Source of the DNA: a virus
Taxonomy: Duplodnaviria; Caudoviricetes
Strand: one strand, 5' to 3'
DNA length: 64,000 nucleotides
Virus record (IMG/VR): IMGVR_UViG_3300042539_001740
Shown: one piece after another, positions 6,366-15,973 of the stretch
How the letters are laid out: every line of letters starts with the position of its first letter
Numbering within the stretch: position 1 is the first letter of the stretch
Translations under genes and position numbers: made by a program
Notes under the pieces: model-generated
The model's input: only the letters and a program-made list of their open reading frames with translations
Told to the model about the DNA's origin: nothing
The model's database searches: none

Positions 6366-9300
6366 ATGTCAAACAGTAAAGTTTTCGTATCTCCTGGTGT
6401 CTATACTTCTGAGGTCGATTTAAGTTTTGTGTCACAAAGTGTGGGCGTAACAACTCTTGGTATTGTTGGTGAAACCTTGAAAGGTCCAGCCTTCGAACCT
6501 ATTTTTATTACAAACTTTGACGAATTCACAACGTATTTCGGTGGTACTTCCCCTGAGAAATTTATAAACACTCAAATACCAAAGTATGAAGCCGCTTATG
6601 TAGCCAAAGCATACTTACAACAATCTAACCAATTATTCGTAACAAGAATTCTTGGGTTATCAGGTTATGATGCAGGACCTTCTTGGTCTATATCTACGGT
6701 TGCTAATGTTGACCAATCAACTGTTGGGTTTGATTGTTCAAGTGCTTCAACTGTAAGTTGTATTACACAATGTGTTGAATTTAAAGTTAGTAGTTATACA
6801 ATCAATTTTACTGGTTGTACAAATAGTATTAACTCTATTTCATACACAACATCAATACCGGCACTTCTATCGGGTGACTTATATAGTACATATGAGTTAT
6901 TTAATGGGTCAACCTCAACGATTGATTCTGATATAAAAAATCAGTTATTCAATATTTTAAACACCCCATCAACATCAGCAACATCAATAAACTATTTTGG
7001 TACAGTATCAGGTGGAACTATTGATACATTATTATCAGGGTACACTTCTCAAAATAATGTGTTTGGTGTTGATAACATTAGTTCGGATTTGGCCGACTAT
7101 ACTGCAGCCGTTAATGATACTTGGTATTATGCAACTTTTGATAATATTGGAAATGGTCAATATTCGGGTTATTCTTTTTACGATTATGTTAATAGTTTAA
7201 CACTAACATCATCGTTATCAAATTGTGCATCATTTTATAGTTACTCAGTAAGTTCTCCAACTATCACTACAGTTACAGGTGCAATCAATTACAATACAAA
7301 TGTAATTAATGTTTGTCTTCCATCCACAGCAACTACAGCTGACGTAACTGCAATGACTATTAATTTCAGTGCTTGTACTAACCCAGCATTAAGTGGTATA
7401 ACAAGTGGTGGTGTGGTACAATCGGCAACAACAGTTGGTTATAATTTTAGTTCTTTGACTAAATCATATACAATAGTATCTGACGATTTGACAGCAACTT
7501 CAGCTTGGACTGTTAATTTACTTTTCACAGACCCATGTGGTGTTTGTACAACAGGTAATACAGGAACAATTCAAACAGGTACAATCACTAATTGTTATAG
7601 TGGTAGTATAACTGGTAACATATACATTTATAGTGGTACAGCATATACAGATTATGATGACTTGGTAATAGCAACACTACGTTCAAGAGGTATTGCAACT
7701 TATGGTACAGATAATGGTGCCGTATATGAGGTCAGTGGATTAACTGACGTTAGTATGGATTGTACTGGCACATATTCAGCGGTTACTAAAAATCCATATT
7801 CAACATTTGCACTTAATGTTACTAATAAAGATGGTGATAACTTTACTTTCGAAACATCATTTACTAATTCAGACCCTAAGTATATTGCTAAAGTATTCGG
7901 TTCAAGTAACTTTGCAAAACCAAGAGCAACAACACCATTGTTTGTAGAAGAAAGGTTCCAATCATTATTAAACTATGGTTATAGAAAAGGTTACATTAGA
8001 GGTTTGAATTGTGACTTGATTGCATTACCAAATGCAAGACAAGAGGTAGACGCAACTTCAATAGCTTTCTACTTAGAAAGATACCAATCACCAGTTTCTC
8101 CATGGGTTGTTTCTGAACTTAGAGGTAACAAAGTATTTAATCTATTCAGATTTACAACGATAGCTGATGGGGATGCTGCAAATACAGAAGTAAAAATTTC
8201 TATGGCAAATATGTCATTCAATAATGGTACTTTTGATGTTCAAATTAGAGATTTCTTTGATAGTGATTCAAATCCTGTTGTATTAGAGAAATTTACAAAT
8301 TGTTCAATGAATCCTAATGAAAATAATTTCATAGCTAAAAAAATTGGAACTAAAGATGGTGAATATGCTTTGAACTCCAAATTTGTAATGTTAGAGATTA
8401 ATGAAGATGCACCAATCGATGCTTTACCTTGTGGTTTCGTTGGTTACAATATGAGAGAATATGCTGGTGCAAAATCACCATTCCCAATTTACAAAACTAA
8501 ATATGATTTCCCTGGTGAAGTTGTATACAATCCACCTTTCGGGTTAGCTTCAGGTGCTGATGATGCTTTAAGAAGTGCTGGTGACAATGTTAGAAGAACA
8601 TATTTAGGTATTTCTGATACAGTTGGTTACGATGTTGATTTCTTCACTTACAAAGGAAAACGTTTACCAGGTTCAAGTATCTGTGATGCAACTACTGGGG
8701 CTGATTGGTCTTATAGAACAAAAGGTTTCCATATGGATAAAGACGCTTCAGGTATTACTATTGCTAACTCGTTTACTACAAGTGGTACTGCTGAGTTTTA
8801 TGTTGGTAGTGGTACATTCACAAGTGACCCTAGTGATGAAACAAATCCTTACTACAGAATATTTGCACGTAAATTTAGTTTCTTGTGCTCAGGTGGTTTC
8901 GATGGTTGGGACATCTACAGAGAACGTAGAACTAATGCCGATAACTTTATTTTGGGTAGAAGTGGTTATTTAAGAGGTGCATGTCCATCGTTCAGATATC
9001 CAACAGCAACAGGATGGGGTGCATTCAAAACAATAACAGTTGGGAATACAACTCAAGATTATGCTAATACTGACTATTACGCTTACTTGTTAGGTCAACA
9101 AACATTCCAAAATCCTGAAGCGGTTAATATAAATGTATTCGTAACAACAGGTATTGATTATGTAAACAATAGTAACCTTGTAGAAGCAGCAATAGAAATG
9201 ATAGAATTTGATAGAGCTGACTCAATTTACATCACAACAACACCTGACTACAATATGTTAGTACCAACAACGGGTGAACAAACTGATGTTATTTATCCAC

Positions 9301-9959
9301 AAGAAGCTGTTGATAACTTAGAAACTGCGGGTATAGATTCTAACTACACGGCAACTTACTATCCTTGGGTATTAACAAGAGATACTGTTAACAATACACA
9401 AATCTATATACCACCAACTGCTGAGGTTTGTAGAAACTTAGCTTTAACTGATAATATTGCTTTCCCTTGGTTTGCTGCGGCAGGTTATACAAGAGGTATT
9501 GTTAACGCAATCAAAGCGAGAAGAAAACTTACACAAGAAGAAAGAGATACTCTATACAAAGGTAGAATTAATCCAATCGCAACTTTCTCTGATGTAGGAA
9601 CAGTTATTTGGGGTAACAAAACTATGCAAATTAGAGAATCTGCTCTTGATAGAATCAACGTAAGAAGATTGTTATTACAAGCAAGAAAACTTATATCTGC
9701 AGTTTCAGTTAGATTGTTGTTCGAACAAAATGACGAAAAAGTAAGACAAGATTTCTTAGATGCTGTCAATCCAATATTAGATGCTATCAGAAGAGATAGA
9801 GGTTTGTATGATTTCCGTGTAACGGTTTCTTCAGACCCTGCAGATTTGGATAGAAACCAATTGACAGGTAAAATATATATTAAACCAACTCGTTCGTTAG
9901 AATTTATAGATATTACTTTCTATATCACCCCAACAGGTGCTTCGTTTGAGAATATTTAA
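6366..9959 (+). CDS. Contractile tail sheath protein (gp18-like) with a large Ser/Thr/Cys-rich insertion
   Basis: N-terminal FVSPGVYTSEVDLS and GETLKGPAFEP. C-terminal YYPWV, FPWFAAAG..RG, INPIATF..G..IWGNKT, SALDRINVRRLL and IKPTRSLEFIDITF are typical sheath motifs. Confidence 0.95.
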   Translation: MSNSKVFVSPGVYTSEVDLSFVSQSVGVTTLGIVGETLKGPAFEPIFITNFDEFTTYFGGTSPEKFINTQIPKYEAAYVAKAYLQQSNQLFVTRILGLSGYDAGPSWSISTVANVDQSTVGFDCSSASTVSCITQCVEFKVSSYTINFTGCTNSINSISYTTSIPALLSGDLYSTYELFNGSTSTIDSDIKNQLFNILNTPSTSATSINYFGTVSGGTIDTLLSGYTSQNNVFGVDNISSDLADYTAAVNDTWYYATFDNIGNGQYSGYSFYDYVNSLTLTSSLSNCASFYSYSVSSPTITTVTGAINYNTNVINVCLPSTATTADVTAMTINFSACTNPALSGITSGGVVQSATTVGYNFSSLTKSYTIVSDDLTATSAWTVNLLFTDPCGVCTTGNTGTIQTGTITNCYSGSITGNIYIYSGTAYTDYDDLVIATLRSRGIATYGTDNGAVYEVSGLTDVSMDCTGTYSAVTKNPYSTFALNVTNKDGDNFTFETSFTNSDPKYIAKVFGSSNFAKPRATTPLFVEERFQSLLNYGYRKGYIRGLNCDLIALPNARQEVDATSIAFYLERYQSPVSPWVVSELRGNKVFNLFRFTTIADGDAANTEVKISMANMSFNNGTFDVQIRDFFDSDSNPVVLEKFTNCSMNPNENNFIAKKIGTKDGEYALNSKFVMLEINEDAPIDALPCGFVGYNMREYAGAKSPFPIYKTKYDFPGEVVYNPPFGLASGADDALRSAGDNVRRTYLGISDTVGYDVDFFTYKGKRLPGSSICDATTGADWSYRTKGFHMDKDASGITIANSFTTSGTAEFYVGSGTFTSDPSDETNPYYRIFARKFSFLCSGGFDGWDIYRERRTNADNFILGRSGYLRGACPSFRYPTATGWGAFKTITVGNTTQDYANTDYYAYLLGQQTFQNPEAVNINVFVTTGIDYVNNSNLVEAAIEMIEFDRADSIYITTTPDYNMLVPTTGEQTDVIYPQEAVDNLETAGIDSNYTATYYPWVLTRDTVNNTQIYIPPTAEVCRNLALTDNIAFPWFAAAGYTRGIVNAIKARRKLTQEERDTLYKGRINPIATFSDVGTVIWGNKTMQIRESALDRINVRRLLLQARKLISAVSVRLLFEQNDEKVRQDFLDAVNPILDAIRRDRGLYDFRVTVSSDPADLDRNQLTGKIYIKPTRSLEFIDITFYITPTGASFENI

Positions 9960-10041: not shown

Positions 10042-10080
10042 TGTAGATTGGTGTTTGTTACATTAAAAAATAATTTACCT

Positions 10081-11604
10081 ATGAAAATTGAATTAAAATG
10101 TATGAATTGTACGAATATGTTTGTTACAGATTATAAACATAGAGATAAAAAATTCTGTGATAGAACTTGTTATTTTGAGTATGCTAAAAAAAATAAGATA
10201 CTTGGTAAGGAGAAAGATGAAAGCGTGAGGGAAAACAGAACTTGTATCCAATGTGGTAATAGTTTTACAGAAAGAAAAAAACACGAAAGAAAACTTTGTT
10301 CCAATGAATGTAGAACAATTTGGAATAAAAAAGAGGTCAATAAAGAAAATAGAATTAACAAGTCGAAACAAGTGTTATATGAAAAGTATGGTGAGGATTC
10401 TTTATTCAAATTAGATGAGTTTAAAAAAAATAGAGATAAACTTTTCATAGAGAAGTATGGAGTTAAGAGTCCTATGTATTTACAAGAATTTGTGGATAAA
10501 TTAAAAAACACAATTAAAATAAAACATTTAGACAAACTACTCCCCAAATTAGATGAACAAAATTTGAAGTTATTAGATGATTATAAACAAAATAAAAATG
10601 GTAATACCTCACAATCTTATACTTTCGAGTGTACTAAATGTGAAAACATTTTTAGTAGTACATTATTAGGTAGTGGTAAAATACCAATCTGTAGAAAATG
10701 TTACCCAATTACCAAAAATTCCAACTTAGAACAAAAAATTAAAGATTTTTTAAATACGAATAATATAAAACATATTGATGCCGACAGAAAAATATTAAAT
10801 GGTAAAGAAATTGATATTTTTTTACCCGATTTCAATCTTGGAATTGAGGTAAATGGTAATTATTTTCATTCTGAAATAAGTGGAGAAAAGACAAAATTAT
10901 ATCATATTGACAAAACGATTCTTTCGAATGATAAAAATATTAATTTGATTCAATTCTATGAAGATGAAATTATGTTAAAAACAGATATCGTATTATCTAA
11001 GTTATCGAGTAAATTGAATTTAAATAGTAAAATTTATGGTAGAAAATGTAATGCTCAAGAAATCACAAAAAAACAATCTATGGAATTTTTGAATGAAAAT
11101 CATTTACAAGGTTATACTATTGATAAATTTAGATATGGTCTTTTTTTTGAAAATGAATTAGTATCTGTAATGACTTTTGGAAAAAAAAGAAAATCGTTAG
11201 GTAATAAAGATATCATTTCTGACGAATATGAATTAATCCGATTTAGTAATAAAAAGTTCACTACAATTGTTGGAGGATTCTCTAAATTGTTAAAATATTT
11301 TATCAATAACATCAATCCACATAAAATAGAAACTTTTGCAGATATCAGATGGTCGGGTATTAATCCAAACAACACAGTTTATCACAAAAATGGTTTTCAA
11401 TATACATCAAAAACACCACCAAATTATTGGTATATTAAAACTGATAAATATCTAAATAGACATCATAGATTTGTGTTTAGAAAGGATGTACTTGTTAAGG
11501 AGGGTTATGATAAAAATATGACAGAGTGGGAAATTATGAAACTAAAAGGTTATGATAGAATTTGGGATTGTGGTTCGTTAAAATTTGAGCTATCATTACG
11601 ATAA
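10081..11604 (+). CDS. Free-standing homing-endonuclease-like protein (Hef-like): Zn-finger repeats, EKYG repeats, DUF559/Vsr-like nuclease and GNAT-like C-terminus
   Basis: Two CxxC...CxxxC repeats, EKYG twice, a CxxC..CxxC ribbon, KEIDIFLPDFNLGIEVNGNYFHS nuclease motif, C-terminal ELIRF..GGFSKL..FAD.RWS..RIWDCG. First ATG is 10081; the track start at 10048 is TTG. Confidence 0.7.
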   Translation: MKIELKCMNCTNMFVTDYKHRDKKFCDRTCYFEYAKKNKILGKEKDESVRENRTCIQCGNSFTERKKHERKLCSNECRTIWNKKEVNKENRINKSKQVLYEKYGEDSLFKLDEFKKNRDKLFIEKYGVKSPMYLQEFVDKLKNTIKIKHLDKLLPKLDEQNLKLLDDYKQNKNGNTSQSYTFECTKCENIFSSTLLGSGKIPICRKCYPITKNSNLEQKIKDFLNTNNIKHIDADRKILNGKEIDIFLPDFNLGIEVNGNYFHSEISGEKTKLYHIDKTILSNDKNINLIQFYEDEIMLKTDIVLSKLSSKLNLNSKIYGRKCNAQEITKKQSMEFLNENHLQGYTIDKFRYGLFFENELVSVMTFGKKRKSLGNKDIISDEYELIRFSNKKFTTIVGGFSKLLKYFINNINPHKIETFADIRWSGINPNNTVYHKNGFQYTSKTPPNYWYIKTDKYLNRHHRFVFRKDVLVKEGYDKNMTEWEIMKLKGYDRIWDCGSLKFELSLR

Positions 11605-11665: not shown

Positions 11666-12547
11666 ATGAGAAATACAATTATTAAATTACTTAGAGAATT
11701 TGAAGAAAGAGAAATCCCAATGAAGTATTATGCTTTTGATTGGGATGATAACTTAATGTATATGCCAACAAAAATCTACTTATTAGATGATGATGGAGAA
11801 GAAGTTGGTATGGGAACTGAGGATTTTGCTGAATATAGAACTCAGATAGGAAAAGAACCTTTTGAATATGAGGGTTTTACTATCGTAAATTTTGCACCAG
11901 ACCCATTCAGAGATTTTAGAGTTACTGGGGATGGTAAATTCTTAAAGGATGTAATGAGTGCTGAATTAGCTAATGATGCTGCATGGCCTGATTTTGTAGA
12001 AGCAATTAATAATGGTTCGTTGTTTGCAATTATTACTGCAAGAGGACATAGACCATCAACACTAATGATGGGGGTTAAAAAACTTATAGATTCAAATAGA
12101 GGTGGAATTGATTCTGATTCTCTATATGATTCATTAAAAGAAATGAGAATTAACTCTGGTGAAAATCCAGCTGATAAAGAAACTGAAATAATGAAGTACC
12201 TAAAAATGAATAGGTATTATCCTGTTTCTTATGGGGAAGGGTCAGCAACAAATCCTGAAGTAGCTAAAATTACAACAATGAATAGATTCAAACAATATGT
12301 TCAAGGTCAAGCTGAAAAATTAAACTTAAGATTATCTAAAAAAATAGAAAACGAAATAAGAAATAAATTTGTTCCTATGATAGGATTTTCTGATGATGAC
12401 CCGAGAAATATTAAGGCTATGAGTAAGGGGGTAAAAGATGTTAAAATATTTTCAACACACGGAGGTATTAAAAAGGAATACAAACCAGATGAAGAAGAAT
12501 TACAACTAGAAACTAGAATAAAAAGAATATTATATAAATTAATATAA
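11666..12547 (+). CDS. HAD-superfamily phosphohydrolase-like protein
   Basis: Motif I AFDWDDN, motif II IITARGH, motif IV GFSDDD. Confidence 0.7.
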   Translation: MRNTIIKLLREFEEREIPMKYYAFDWDDNLMYMPTKIYLLDDDGEEVGMGTEDFAEYRTQIGKEPFEYEGFTIVNFAPDPFRDFRVTGDGKFLKDVMSAELANDAAWPDFVEAINNGSLFAIITARGHRPSTLMMGVKKLIDSNRGGIDSDSLYDSLKEMRINSGENPADKETEIMKYLKMNRYYPVSYGEGSATNPEVAKITTMNRFKQYVQGQAEKLNLRLSKKIENEIRNKFVPMIGFSDDDPRNIKAMSKGVKDVKIFSTHGGIKKEYKPDEEELQLETRIKRILYKLI

Positions 12548-12679: not shown

Positions 12680-13168
12680 ATGGCTGATTTATTGATGAAA
12701 ATGCCCATACCTTATGAACCTAAAAGACAGAATAGGTTTATTATGAGATTTCCTTCTTCTTTAGGTATTAATGAATGGTTCGTGGAATCAACATCTAGAC
12801 CAAAAGTTAAGATAAACTCGGTTGAAATCCCATTTTTAAACACTTCAACATATGTTGCAGGTAGATTTAACTGGGAAGAAATTTCTGTTACTTTTAGAGA
12901 CCCTATCGGTCCATCTGCAGCACAAGCACTTATGGAATGGGTTCGTCTTCATGCTGAATCTGTAACAGGTCGTATGGGGTATGCTGCGGGATATAAGAAA
13001 AATGTTGATTTGGAGATGTTAGACCCAACTGGTGTAGTTGTTGAAAAATGGATACTTGAGGGTTGTTTTTTAACTAACGTTGATTTTCAAGGACTATCAT
13101 ATAGTGATGACAAAATAGCAACAATCCAAGCAAACCTTAGAATGGATAGATGTATATTAGTATACTAA
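12680..13168 (+). CDS. Tail tube protein (gp19-like)
   Basis: 162 aa. EPKRQNRF, VAGRFNWEEISVTFRD, EKWILEGCF and L.Y....IATI...L..D are characteristic of gp19-like tubes. Confidence 0.9.
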   Translation: MADLLMKMPIPYEPKRQNRFIMRFPSSLGINEWFVESTSRPKVKINSVEIPFLNTSTYVAGRFNWEEISVTFRDPIGPSAAQALMEWVRLHAESVTGRMGYAAGYKKNVDLEMLDPTGVVVEKWILEGCFLTNVDFQGLSYSDDKIATIQANLRMDRCILVY

Positions 13169-13221: not shown

Positions 13222-13980
13222 ATGGATGCTAATATATTAAAAGCCGGTACTGAAAATTTTAATTTACCACACGATGTAGTTCCTTTACCATCGGGTGGTA
13301 TTTTTTATAAGAACAAAAAGAAATCTGTAAAAGTTGGTTACCTTACAGCTAATGATGAAAACATAATTTTAGGGGGAATTTCTAATCCTAATGTAAATGT
13401 TGTTACTACTTTAATACGAAGTAAACTTTACGAAACAGATATCAGACCCGAAGAACTTTTAGAGGGTGATGTTGAAGCAATTCTAATTTATTTGAGAAAT
13501 ACATCTTTCGGTCCTGAATACACACTCACATTGACTGACCCATTAACAAACAAACCATTCGAAGCTACAATAGTTTTGGATGAATTAAATATTGTTAAAC
13601 CAAATTCAACACCTGATGAAAACGGACATTACAATGTAAAATTACCACGTAGTGAAGCGAATGTAAAACTTAAACCACTGACTTATGGTGAAATCATTGA
13701 AATAGATAAAATGGTTGAAAGTTATCCTACTAATATGACACCTCCAAGAGTTACTTGGAAATTAATGAAACATATTGTTGAAATTAATGGTGAGACAGAT
13801 AGAGAAAAAATTTCACAAATGGTAAATAATCTTCCAATTATGGATTCAAAATTTATTAAAAAATTCATAAAAGAAAATGAACCATCTTTGGATTTAAAAA
13901 GAGTTGTTAGAGCACCATCAGGTGAACAGGTGAATTTGGAGGTCACCTTTGGTGTTGAATTTTTTCGCCCTTTCTTCTAA
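13222..13980 (+). CDS. Tail assembly chaperone / baseplate hub assembly protein (T4 gp26/gp51-like)
   Basis: Lies between tube and tape measure. Motifs LPSGG..Y, YLTANDENII, DVEAILIYLRNTSFG.EY. Ends GVEFFRPFF. Confidence 0.7.
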   Translation: MDANILKAGTENFNLPHDVVPLPSGGIFYKNKKKSVKVGYLTANDENIILGGISNPNVNVVTTLIRSKLYETDIRPEELLEGDVEAILIYLRNTSFGPEYTLTLTDPLTNKPFEATIVLDELNIVKPNSTPDENGHYNVKLPRSEANVKLKPLTYGEIIEIDKMVESYPTNMTPPRVTWKLMKHIVEINGETDREKISQMVNNLPIMDSKFIKKFIKENEPSLDLKRVVRAPSGEQVNLEVTFGVEFFRPFF

Positions 13981-14122
13981 GTATAGAGAAGTATTATTAG
14001 ATGAGTATTTTTTATTGGGTAAATTTCTTCATACATCATATACCGATTTTTTAAATTTACCAACATACTCAAGAAAATATTTAGTCAATAAAATTATAGA
14101 ATACCACACATCTGAAAAATAA
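13961..14122 (+). CDS. ATG-less +1-frame extension of the chaperone (FFALSSKYREVLLDEYFLLGKFLHTSYTDFLNLPTYSRKYLVNKIIEYHTSEK), probable programmed frameshift product
   Basis: The +1 frame is open from 13934 to TAA 14120-14122 and contains no ATG. It overlaps GAA TTT TTT CGC at 13957-13968 and lies in the canonical G/GT position before the tape measure gene. Confidence 0.65.
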   Translation, partial: FFALSSKYREVLLDEYFLLGKFLHTSYTDFLNLPTYSRKYLVNKIIEYHTSEK

Positions 14123-14161: not shown

Positions 14162-15973
14162 ATGGGTGGAGACGATGGTAAATCACTCTTAAGTGGTATA
14201 GAAAAACAATTTCAGGAAATTGGAGAAAACTTTGGTGACGCTGTATTATCAAATGTAAAACCTGCTAGTTTAAAAAAAGTTTTTGATGAAGTAGAGGGTG
14301 CTGCAATTGGTGTCGCAAAATCTTTTGGTGTTGGTAGAACTAATATATTGAGCATAAAAGCAGCAATGACAGATGTTGTTGGTGATGTTAAAGAATTGGG
14401 TGGAAAATTTTCTGATATATCAGCTATTCAAACATCAATATCCTCTGATTTGGGTAGGAATGTCATATTAAATAATCAAGCGTATAAAGGATTAATAGCA
14501 ACAGCTAAGGTTACTGGTTTGGAAGTTGATGATATGGCAAAAAAATTCAAAGATGTTGGTGTTTCATATATGGGTGTACAAGACCAAATGCAGAAAGTAG
14601 TTGACATCTCAAGAAAAATGGGAGTTAATGCTCAAGGTGTTTCAGATGAGGTAGCAAAAAATTTAACTAAACTTAATACATTTAATTTTAAAGGTGGTAT
14701 AGAAGGGTTAACTAAAATGGTAGCTCAGGCTAAAGTTTTAAGAATAAATATGGAAGAAGTTTTTACATTATCCGAAAGTTTATTCGAACCTGACAAAGCT
14801 ATAGAAATGTCGGCGGCATTACAAAGATTAGGTGTTACACAATCTGAATTATTAGACCCACTTCGATTGATGGATATGGCACAGAATGACCCTGGTGAAT
14901 TGATGAATCAAATGTCCAAAATGTCAGAAAAATTTGTTCAGCTTAATAAAGATGGTCGTTTCGAAATTATGCCTGGTGCAAAAAGACAACTAAGAGAGAT
15001 TGCCAAAGAAATGGGAATGAGTTATGATGAATTAGCAAAAATGGCAACTGGCTCAAAAGAACTCGATATGAAATTGAGTAAAATTAAATTTCCTGCAACA
15101 TTTACTGAAGAACAAAGAAACTTCATAGCTAATTTATCAGAAATAGGTCCTGGTGGTGAAATGACTTTAACCGTTGATGGTACTCAAATGGGAATAGATA
15201 AAGCTATGGAAACTTTTGCTAAAGACAAAGATGCTTTAGACAAATTTATGAAAGACCAAGAACCTAAAACGATGGAAGAGTTGGCAAAAGAACAACTTAC
15301 TGTCCAAGAAAACCAAGAAATATTGTTGGCTATGATTGCTGACACTATGGGTTATGGTTTAGCAGCATCCAAAGGTGGTGAAAGATTAAGTAGGGCTGAG
15401 ATAGAAATTTATAAAAATGGTATCGAAGTATTAAAGAGAACAACTAAGGATAAAGAAGGTAAAGAAAAAACAGAAACATTTTCAGAAAAGGGAATTAGAC
15501 AAGGTATTGGAACTCAGTCAGATGATTTGATTAAAAGTTTATTCAAAGGTGATTTCAAAGGAGCTGGTGAGGCTGGCAGTAATATGGCCAACGAGTTTTA
15601 CAATATGTTTAAGGAAAAAATGGAAAAAGCTAGTGTTGTGTATAAAGAATCTAAAGTTGGAAGTATTTTGACTGGTGAGGATGAAAAAACTAAAACTCAA
15701 GTAGCAACTACCACAACACCGAAAACAACTGAAATGAGTTATTTGGATAAATTACAAAAACAAGTACAAGCACCAACAACTCAAAACTTAAATTATAGTG
15801 GTAATTTAAATGTAACTTTTTCAGCCCCACCTGGTGTAAATACCACTGAGGTCGAAAGAGTGTTGAATGAACTTATGAAAAAACCTGAGTTTATTCAAAT
15901 GATTGCTCAAATGGCCAAAGACCCAACAGGTAAACAAACTCCATCACAACAAAATATGAATTTTGGTAGATGA
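14162..15973 (+). CDS. Tape measure protein
   Basis: 603 aa, Ala/Gly/Lys-rich and predicted helical, located directly after tube and chaperone. Confidence 0.7.
   Translation: MGGDDGKSLLSGIEKQFQEIGENFGDAVLSNVKPASLKKVFDEVEGAAIGVAKSFGVGRTNILSIKAAMTDVVGDVKELGGKFSDISAIQTSISSDLGRNVILNNQAYKGLIATAKVTGLEVDDMAKKFKDVGVSYMGVQDQMQKVVDISRKMGVNAQGVSDEVAKNLTKLNTFNFKGGIEGLTKMVAQAKVLRINMEEVFTLSESLFEPDKAIEMSAALQRLGVTQSELLDPLRLMDMAQNDPGELMNQMSKMSEKFVQLNKDGRFEIMPGAKRQLREIAKEMGMSYDELAKMATGSKELDMKLSKIKFPATFTEEQRNFIANLSEIGPGGEMTLTVDGTQMGIDKAMETFAKDKDALDKFMKDQEPKTMEELAKEQLTVQENQEILLAMIADTMGYGLAASKGGERLSRAEIEIYKNGIEVLKRTTKDKEGKEKTETFSEKGIRQGIGTQSDDLIKSLFKGDFKGAGEAGSNMANEFYNMFKEKMEKASVVYKESKVGSILTGEDEKTKTQVATTTTPKTTEMSYLDKLQKQVQAPTTQNLNYSGNLNVTFSAPPGVNTTEVERVLNELMKKPEFIQMIAQMAKDPTGKQTPSQQNMNFGR

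Follow-up and report, generated by a model that had tools for sequence, protein, structure and literature searches.

A probable +1 ribosomal frameshift in a T4 gp26/gp51-family tail chaperone gene of an uncultured lake myophage and its relatives

Introduction

The last codons of a tail chaperone gene in the virus record IMGVR_UViG_3300042539_001740 are overlapped by an open +1 reading frame, which raises the question of whether a fraction of ribosomes passes from one frame into the other and so makes a second, longer chaperone. Few recoding events in viruses are as conserved as programmed frameshifting in tail chaperone genes. For lambda gpG/gpGT and the conservation of the chaperone frameshift, a passage of a 2016 review cites Levin 1993 and Xu, Hendrix and Duda 2004, 2013 and 2014, and the tail chaperone frameshift is there described as conserved in long-tailed phages "except T4" (PMC5009743). 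The gene considered here belongs to the T4 gp26/gp51 family. A first-pass annotation of the 64,000-nucleotide stretch that we analyzed (the window) had proposed a probable +1 shift at UUU_UUU_CGC, and we have followed this proposal through the reading frames of the locus, its relatives in metagenomes and cultured phages, the predicted extension domain, and the explanations that compete with it.

Results

Reading frames at the end of the chaperone gene

The 3' end of the open reading frame at 13222-13980 reads GGT GTT GAA TTT TTT CGC CCT TTC TTC TAA, with the stop codon at 13978-13980, and from GAA onward this is exactly the ending given in the first-pass annotation. The +1 frame is open from 13934 to 14122. 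Within it lies a downstream open reading frame of 57 codons (13949-14122) that contains no ATG, its only candidate starts being TTG 13949, GTG 13952, TTG 13955, and one internal TTG. If the shift occurs on the second TTT (13963-13965), reading would restart at GCC (13967) and continue for 51 codons to the stop at 14120-14122, so that the long form would be encoded by 13222-13965 joined to 13967-14119 (248 + 51 = 299 aa). The coordinates thus agree with the earlier description of a +1 frame of 51 codons without an ATG and a product of about 299 aa instead of 252 aa. The features of the locus are collected in Table 1.

Other ways of continuing past the stop were considered and rejected. The −1 frame closes 6 codons past the 0-frame stop, and a −1 shift was ruled out because that frame closes within a few codons. 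Stop-codon readthrough and an alternative genetic code were ruled out as well, since the extension lies in a different frame and relatives use all three stop codons. No tRNA genes were found within the window.

Table 1. Features of the tail module and of the overlap in the window
Feature	Position	Strand	Evidence or remark
Tail sheath gene (1197 aa), opens the tail module	6366..9959	+	phrog_23 'tail sheath' 2e-54, residues 980-1195
Homing/HNH endonuclease gene, 518 aa, between sheath and tube genes	10048-11604	+	phrog_3339 2e-102; DUF7487
293-aa ORF between endonuclease and tube genes	11666-12547	+	no Pfam or PHROG match
T4 gp19-like tail tube gene, next to the chaperone gene on its upstream side	12680..13168	+	phrog_4542 'tail tube protein' 8e-27
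0-frame gene, short form of 252 aa, T4 gp26/gp51 family	13222..13980	+	C terminus ...GVEFFRPFF-stop
Near-invariant nucleotide island around the shift site, coding in two frames	13945..13987	+	alignment of 41 sequences
Predicted shift site TTT TTT CGC	13960..13968	+	UUU_Y conserved; both Phe codons fixed; rare A-site codon
+1-frame extension, 51 codons plus stop, C-terminal domain of the predicted 299-aa long form	13967..14122	+	conserved motif, pN/pS, AF2, in-frame fusions
Putative tape measure gene, 603 aa, directly downstream	14162..15973	+	position only

The chaperone and its neighborhood

The first-pass annotation had called the product a tail assembly chaperone. The term chaperone stands, but the protein is not a generic one: it is a member of the T4 gp26/gp51 family, with a match of 38.8 bits (E 1e-9, residues 31-233) to Pfam PF12322 (T4_baseplate, T4 gp26/gp51), for which the gathering cut-off is 24.5 bits and for which T4 gp26 and gp51 score 215.6 and 177.5 bits, respectively, in the same library. 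It also matches phrog_150 'baseplate hub' at 5e-14. T4 gp26 and gp51 have been described as hub assembly chaperones (PMC3004832). The AF2 model of the 252-aa protein (pLDDT 84, pTM 0.79) had HK97 2ob9 as its top Foldseek match (E 0.19, prob 0.91), and a wide search with VIA-align, in which Z values below 8 can reflect a common arrangement, returned 3fgx (Z 6.1), YqbN 3klu (Z 5.5), 2ob9 (Z 5.3), and p2 ORF12 3d8l (Z 2.6). It is suggestive that solved phage tail assembly chaperones rank first among the fold matches of this model.

The gene order is sheath, tube, chaperone, and putative tape measure, and in 94 related loci the chaperone gene has a tube homolog ahead of it on the same strand. The 603-aa product of the last gene had no family match with Pfam, PHROGs, or tblastn; the records of Flavobacterium phage immuto, Bacillus phage HSE3, and Listeria phage LIS04 give the name tape measure to the gene in this place, and we call the gene in the window a putative tape measure gene by position alone. 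Only residues 980-1195 of the sheath protein match sheath families, and the first ~970 residues could be a large insertion or decoration domain. A blastn search of the region against 50,697 phage records gave no match.

Conservation within the clade of the window

Relatives with 55-98% identity are encoded at 80 IMG/VR loci. All 80 read TTT TTT CGN CCT TTC TTY followed by a stop, with the +1 frame open for 44-50 codons where the contig reaches far enough to be counted. The 0-frame stop may be TAA, TAG, or TGA, yet it keeps a fixed codon position in nearly all members. The +1 peptides align without gaps over 52 positions and share the motif FF[AGV]LSS.YR..L.DEY..L...SY.DF...P.Y.RKYL..K.IE. Past the 0-frame stop, the +1 frame has a pN/pS of 0.37 and the other two frames have 0.99 and 1.18; by this measure the +1 frame is under purifying selection.

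The nucleotides of the site are themselves held almost constant. In an alignment of 41 sequences, 15 of the 16 bases that follow the first T never change, and within the first 15 bases of this stretch the N of CGN is the only one to vary; synonymous sites elsewhere in the same sequences are near saturation. Both Phe codons of the site are TTT in 41/41 sequences, while seven other conserved Phe columns carry 12-32% TTC, and the Arg codon of the site is always CGN and never AGR. The first-pass annotation had named conservation of TTT TTT CG and of the +1 frame among relatives as a check on its proposal; both are kept throughout this clade, and the shorter element UUU_Y is found in 113/113 related loci.

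Distant clades and cultured phages

All 113 distinct related loci combine a UUU_Y site in the overlap with a +1 frame that is open across the 0-frame stop, a recurrence far beyond chance. They include a second clade, made up of relatives of Microcystis phage Mel-JY01, whose chaperones are only ~25% identical to that of the window. Its site is TTT TTT TGG CCT, with the variants CTT TTT TGG, TTT TTT TAC, and a T8 run; TTT TTT is present in 64/64 and 65/65 cases, while other conserved Phe columns mix TTT and TTC. The +1 peptide of the second clade, FFGL..YR..LH..IF.L.YHG.GGF...VYNMP.W.R.FY, aligns with the extension of the window, and residues F1, F2, L4, P34, and R38 are invariant across both clades. 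Conservation of the +1 peptide starts exactly at the slippery run, with the FF codons, and spans both clades together with Mel-JY01, immuto, and Rhodothermus phage RM378.

Among isolates and assembled genomes the site is AGC TTT CTT TGG in immuto, TTT TTT TGG in RM378, TTT TTT CAC in Bacillus phage SP-15, TTT TTT AGT in LIS04 (where only the first UUU precedes a pyrimidine), TTC TTT CGT in HSE3 and in Streptococcus phage GXN1, and AAC TTT CTA in megaphage LR756508. The immuto site (locus L167, 3205-3216) contains within TTT CTT TGG both a CUU_U, the type of P-site slip known from prfB, and a UUU_C, and either could be the shift codon. None of the annotated isolate records of these relatives marks a frameshift; several call the +1-frame fragment a hypothetical protein, and the LR756508 record carries no annotation at all.

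The extension domain and natural in-frame fusions

AF2 predicts the extension to be a compact unit of three helices at residues 6-23, 27-32, and 35-50 (pLDDT 91); a Foldseek search of this model against the PDB gave no informative match. In a search of 1.84 billion proteins, a profile of the extension recovered 1230 cluster representatives at E <= 1e-3. The best 150 of these 1230 are mostly "orphan" open reading frames, 56-130 aa long, whose domain starts near residue 3-15. Five of the same 150 are proteins of 308-331 aa, and P0006 (356 aa) is a sixth; all six consist of PF12322 followed in frame by the extension domain. The junctions of the long proteins are NFFGL, SIFGL, NVFGI, DIFNI, and NFISL, and because they differ from one another they are not homopolymer errors.

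Three of the fused proteins (P0006, P0084, and P0127) are each encoded directly after a shorter PF12322 gene. The resulting tandem pairs of short and long proteins measure 276 + 356 aa (on a 372-kb contig), 289 + 308 aa, and 284 + 308 aa (loci L171, L174, and L176). In L176 the sheath gene is followed by genes of 398, 166, and 99 aa, then by the short and the long member of the pair, and last by a 1009-aa gene. A DUF7487 protein, like the endonuclease in Table 1, lies close to the PF12322 gene pair in L174. Two further proteins carry the extension in another context: in P0005 (266 aa), which has nothing of PF12322, it is internal and precedes a long coiled region, and in P0004 (258 aa) it runs into a UDP-glucose dehydrogenase, an open reading frame that may be miscalled or chimeric.

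DUF6760 (PF20546) was tried as a family for the extension and dropped, as 5/34 sequences matched it weakly with a best E value of 8e-4, below the cut-off. The weak similarity concerned L085 and four other second-clade extensions, and no mention of DUF6760 was found in the literature. The lambda T domain, according to a passage of the review, binds the major tail protein (PMC5009743), and by analogy the extension may link the chaperone to the tube or hub. A complex prediction for the tube protein and the extension, each entered as an alignment, scored 0.00 and was uninformative either way.

Proposed shift mechanism

We hypothesize that the 299-aa long form is made by a +1 ribosomal shift at UUU_UUU_CGC, a reading that we hold with good confidence on the strength of the sequence comparisons; the shift and its efficiency alike are predicted in the following scheme. 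Most ribosomes would stay in the 0 frame and end at the TAA at 13978, releasing the 252-aa short form. CGC, the codon that follows the second UUU (13963-13965), is extremely rare in this phage, and for this reason a minority would stall there with tRNA-Phe still paired to that UUU in the P site. The tRNA-Phe would then re-pair one base on, with UUC (13964-13966), a better pairing in which a G:C replaces a G:U at the wobble position. C13966 would be skipped, and reading in the +1 frame from GCC over 51 codons would yield 299 aa with the junction ...GVEFF-ALSSK..., followed by the three-helix C-terminal domain.

Codon usage in the window fits the first step. The earlier remark that CGC looks rare was well founded: it accounts for 2 of 20,682 codons (0.10 per 1000) and is the rarest sense codon used, CGG occurring 0 times and AGA 517 times. 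One of the two CGC codons is that of the shift site, which is also the only in-frame TTT-CGN in the 36 ORFs of the window. The A-site codon in the +1 frame, GCC, occurs 67 times and is thus 33 times commoner than CGC. The hungry-codon step may not hold for every lineage, since the second clade has UGG, not a classical rare codon, in the 0-frame A site.

The sole element common to all lineages is a UUU followed by a pyrimidine, which permits +1 re-pairing of tRNA-Phe. The sites of HSE3 and GXN1 (TTC TTT CGT), immuto (TTT CTT), and LR756508 (TTT CTA) have only T3 followed by C, and only a +1 slip of tRNA-Phe therefore fits every lineage. If it is the second Phe codon that shifts, the four main lineages would have the junctions EFF-A, NFF-G, EFF-V, and EFF-V, in each of which xFF is followed by a small residue. 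[quoted passage not shown] Searches for RNA structure, by RNAalifold over 38 sequences (−0.4) and by single-sequence z-scores (0.04 to −1.5), indicated no stimulatory hairpin or pseudoknot, and the upstream Gly codon is not fixed (GGT, GGC, GGG), which argues that there is no conserved Shine-Dalgarno stimulator.

Alternative explanations

Two other routes could yield the same long protein: a −2 slip on UUU UUU, with the junction EFFF-ALSSK, and slippage of RNA polymerase along the T6, with one U lost or two gained. The T6 is invariant in the clade of the window, including the wobble T of the first Phe codon, and the second clade has T7; an invariant wobble T at that codon would be needed for a −2 slip, for slippage, or for E-site re-pairing, whereas a simple P-site +1 slip on the second codon would not need it. 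Re-pairing of UUU onto UUU in a −2 slip would, moreover, be perfect. However, the relatives with TTC TTT CGT, TTT CTT, or TTT CTA lack the run that these routes need and yet retain the +1 frame and its domain, and these T3-only sites exclude both −2 slip and polymerase slippage as the general mechanism. The strict presence of a rare CGN after the run is explained by a hungry A site and not by slippage. T6 is also short for efficient polymerase slippage, known cases of which use runs of about 9, and the DNA contigs have no length variation at the T6. We consider these routes an unlikely source of the long form, but in the window, where the first TTT is frozen, a −2 shift, T6 slippage, or E-site re-pairing may contribute.

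The extension might instead be a small gene of its own, with no fusion made, either initiated at one of the TTG/GTG codons at 13949-13955 or reached by reinitiation past the upstream stop. In the window three near-cognate starts do lie just ahead of the FF codons, gene callers list hundreds of such frames as separate small proteins, and several GenBank/RefSeq records annotate part of the frame as a hypothetical protein. In 31 of the 113 distinct loci, however, no ATG, GTG, or TTG is found ahead of the conserved part, over the interval that opens at the upstream +1 stop and closes eight codons beyond the junction, so that initiation from a TTG or GTG of its own, which the first-pass annotation had named as one of the observations that would overturn its proposal, cannot be general. 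In L049/L061 and in L071/L068/L073/L074 a +1-frame stop stands directly before the FF codons, and in L028, L029, and L049 no such start codon appears until well inside the conserved domain. Against an independent gene stand also the onset of +1-frame conservation exactly at the slippery run and the fusion of the same domain in frame to PF12322 in other phages, and the frozen TTT TTT and the choice of CGN have no explanation under it; we regard it as very improbable. We give almost no credence to the remaining idea that the overlap is an artifact, that is, a homopolymer assembly error or a decaying gene with a chance open frame downstream. Homopolymer runs are error-prone, and the in-frame "fusion" P0002, on a single 1.4-kb contig, could be such an error. 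But the same frame relation recurs in the 113 distinct loci from many samples, lake-metagenome contigs from DNA runs of 2020, 2023, and 2024 are identical, with no indel in the T6, and a decaying gene would hardly show purifying selection downstream or a stop that changes among TAA, TAG, and TGA while keeping its codon position in nearly all of the clade. The evidence as a whole favors a +1 shift and a fused product.

In the mapping of lake contigs to the window, summed contig depth rose 1.6- to 6-fold in the bin 13940-13986, and only there, in all three DNA runs; the rise is due to contigs of co-occurring relatives, which align to the window only at the conserved island, a mark of how strong the conservation of the site is at the nucleotide level. 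None of the listed RNA runs reaches the site; the single RNA match, X24, covered only 13251-13363 and, with 9 differences, belongs to a relative, and its flanking loose ends resemble sequencing-adaptor sequence.

T4 gp26 and gp51 and the two-gene arrangement

T4 has two PF12322 genes, a short one for gp26 (208 aa), which the family covers end to end, and a long one for gp51 (249 aa), which consists of PF12322 plus 48 C-terminal residues. This mirrors the 252- and 299-aa products predicted here and the tandem genes of L171, L174, and L176, and T4 gp26 also ends with an EFF motif. In T4, however, the two genes are separate and divergently placed, have no overlapping frame, and do not adjoin the tube gene. 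Between the gp51 tail and the extension the architecture alone agrees (PF12322 plus ~48 aa), with no sequence similarity detected: hhalign of the tail (residues 202-249) against the extension gave a probability of 0.2, and an HMM built from 189 extension sequences did not place gp51 above decoys. RefSeq also lists T4 gene 26' (L084, 7803-8090), an internal in-frame product of gene 26 of 95 aa, and by this annotation T4 makes further size variants of the family by internal initiation.

Five complete isolate genomes with the overlap arrangement each have exactly one family gene, and the record from which the window comes (194 kb, ~66% complete) has one family gene and one extension. Judged from these gene counts, a short and a long form together seem to be a conserved requirement that is met either by recoding or by a second gene.

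Discussion

The locus shares its layout with lambda gpG/gpGT. In both, two overlapping frames lie between the tube and tape measure genes (the latter putative here), the first frame ends a few codons beyond the slippery site, the second lacks a start of its own, although the window itself does hold TTG/GTG codons at 13949-13955, and a short product is accompanied by a C-terminally extended long one, here predicted. The systems differ in that lambda shifts −1 at G_GGA_AAG and this phage would shift +1 at UUU_UUU_CGC with a rare A-site codon, and in that lambda has the gpG family in place of PF12322, the fold similarity of our model to solved chaperones being moderate (Z 5-6). By analogy with lambda, the short and long forms may both be needed, in a set ratio, for assembly of the tube around the tape measure or hub, with neither ending up in the virion.

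In its mechanics the proposed shift resembles +1 systems known from elsewhere. The E. coli prfB gene (RF2) is read with a +1 frameshift at CUU_UGA, where the tRNA in the P site can move +1 onto a U-rich codon while the A site is slow to be filled, as proposed here, and immuto has CUU_UGG at the homologous place; our site differs from prfB in that its A-site codon is not a stop and in that it lacks both a conserved Shine-Dalgarno stimulator and autoregulation. Influenza PA-X and the bacterial UUU_Ynn sites, as presented in a passage of the review, share with it the move of tRNA-Phe from UUU to UUC before a poorly decoded CGN and do so without a stimulatory RNA structure (PMC5009743). Our case differs from PA-X in its bacterial or phage ribosome and in its U6 run, so that the E-site tRNA could also re-pair.

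The first-pass annotation regarded a UUU_CG +1 shift in a large myophage chaperone as unusual. For the gp26/gp51 family, neither the papers found nor the database records read report a frameshift, but +1 shifts in tail chaperone genes as such are less unusual than the annotation supposed. The chaperone shift of the archaeal myovirus HSTV-2 is given as very likely +1 in the review passage (PMC5009743), and the part of the SEA-PHAGES study drawn on here counts 350 annotated forward frameshift cases, mostly in chaperone genes (PMC10885494). These cases share with ours the +1 direction and a chaperone gene that precedes the tape measure gene; they concern other protein families and hosts, and the portions of both sources drawn on here yielded none for the gp26/gp51 family. 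The G/GT principle and its +1 versions in other families were thus already known, and the addition made here concerns the gp26/gp51 family.

We lean, with some reserve, toward a broader reading in which gp26/gp51 (PF12322) is the T4-type counterpart of lambda gpG/gpGT, and every long-tailed lineage, T4 included, needs a short and an extended chaperone but can obtain them by interchangeable routes. One route would be a +1 shift at UUU_Y, as in this phage, Mel-JY01, immuto, RM378, SP-15, and HSE3, and another a duplicated pair, as in T4 26/51 and in L171, L174, and L176. For annotation, the comparison flags a systematic error, as most of the best 150 profile matches of the extension stand as orphans in protein collections and the isolate records read are without the frameshift. 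Phages immuto, HSE3, and SP-15 may offer culturable +1 systems in hosts such as Flavobacterium and Bacillus. If this reading is right, the locus and its relatives would mean that the T4 gp26/gp51 family follows the G/GT logic, with a +1 shift at UUU_Y in many uncultured and cultured myophages and a gene pair elsewhere. For T4 itself, where gp26 and gp51 still carry no label beyond "hub assembly chaperones," it suggests a concrete role that can be put to the test, as the short and the extended member of such a pair.
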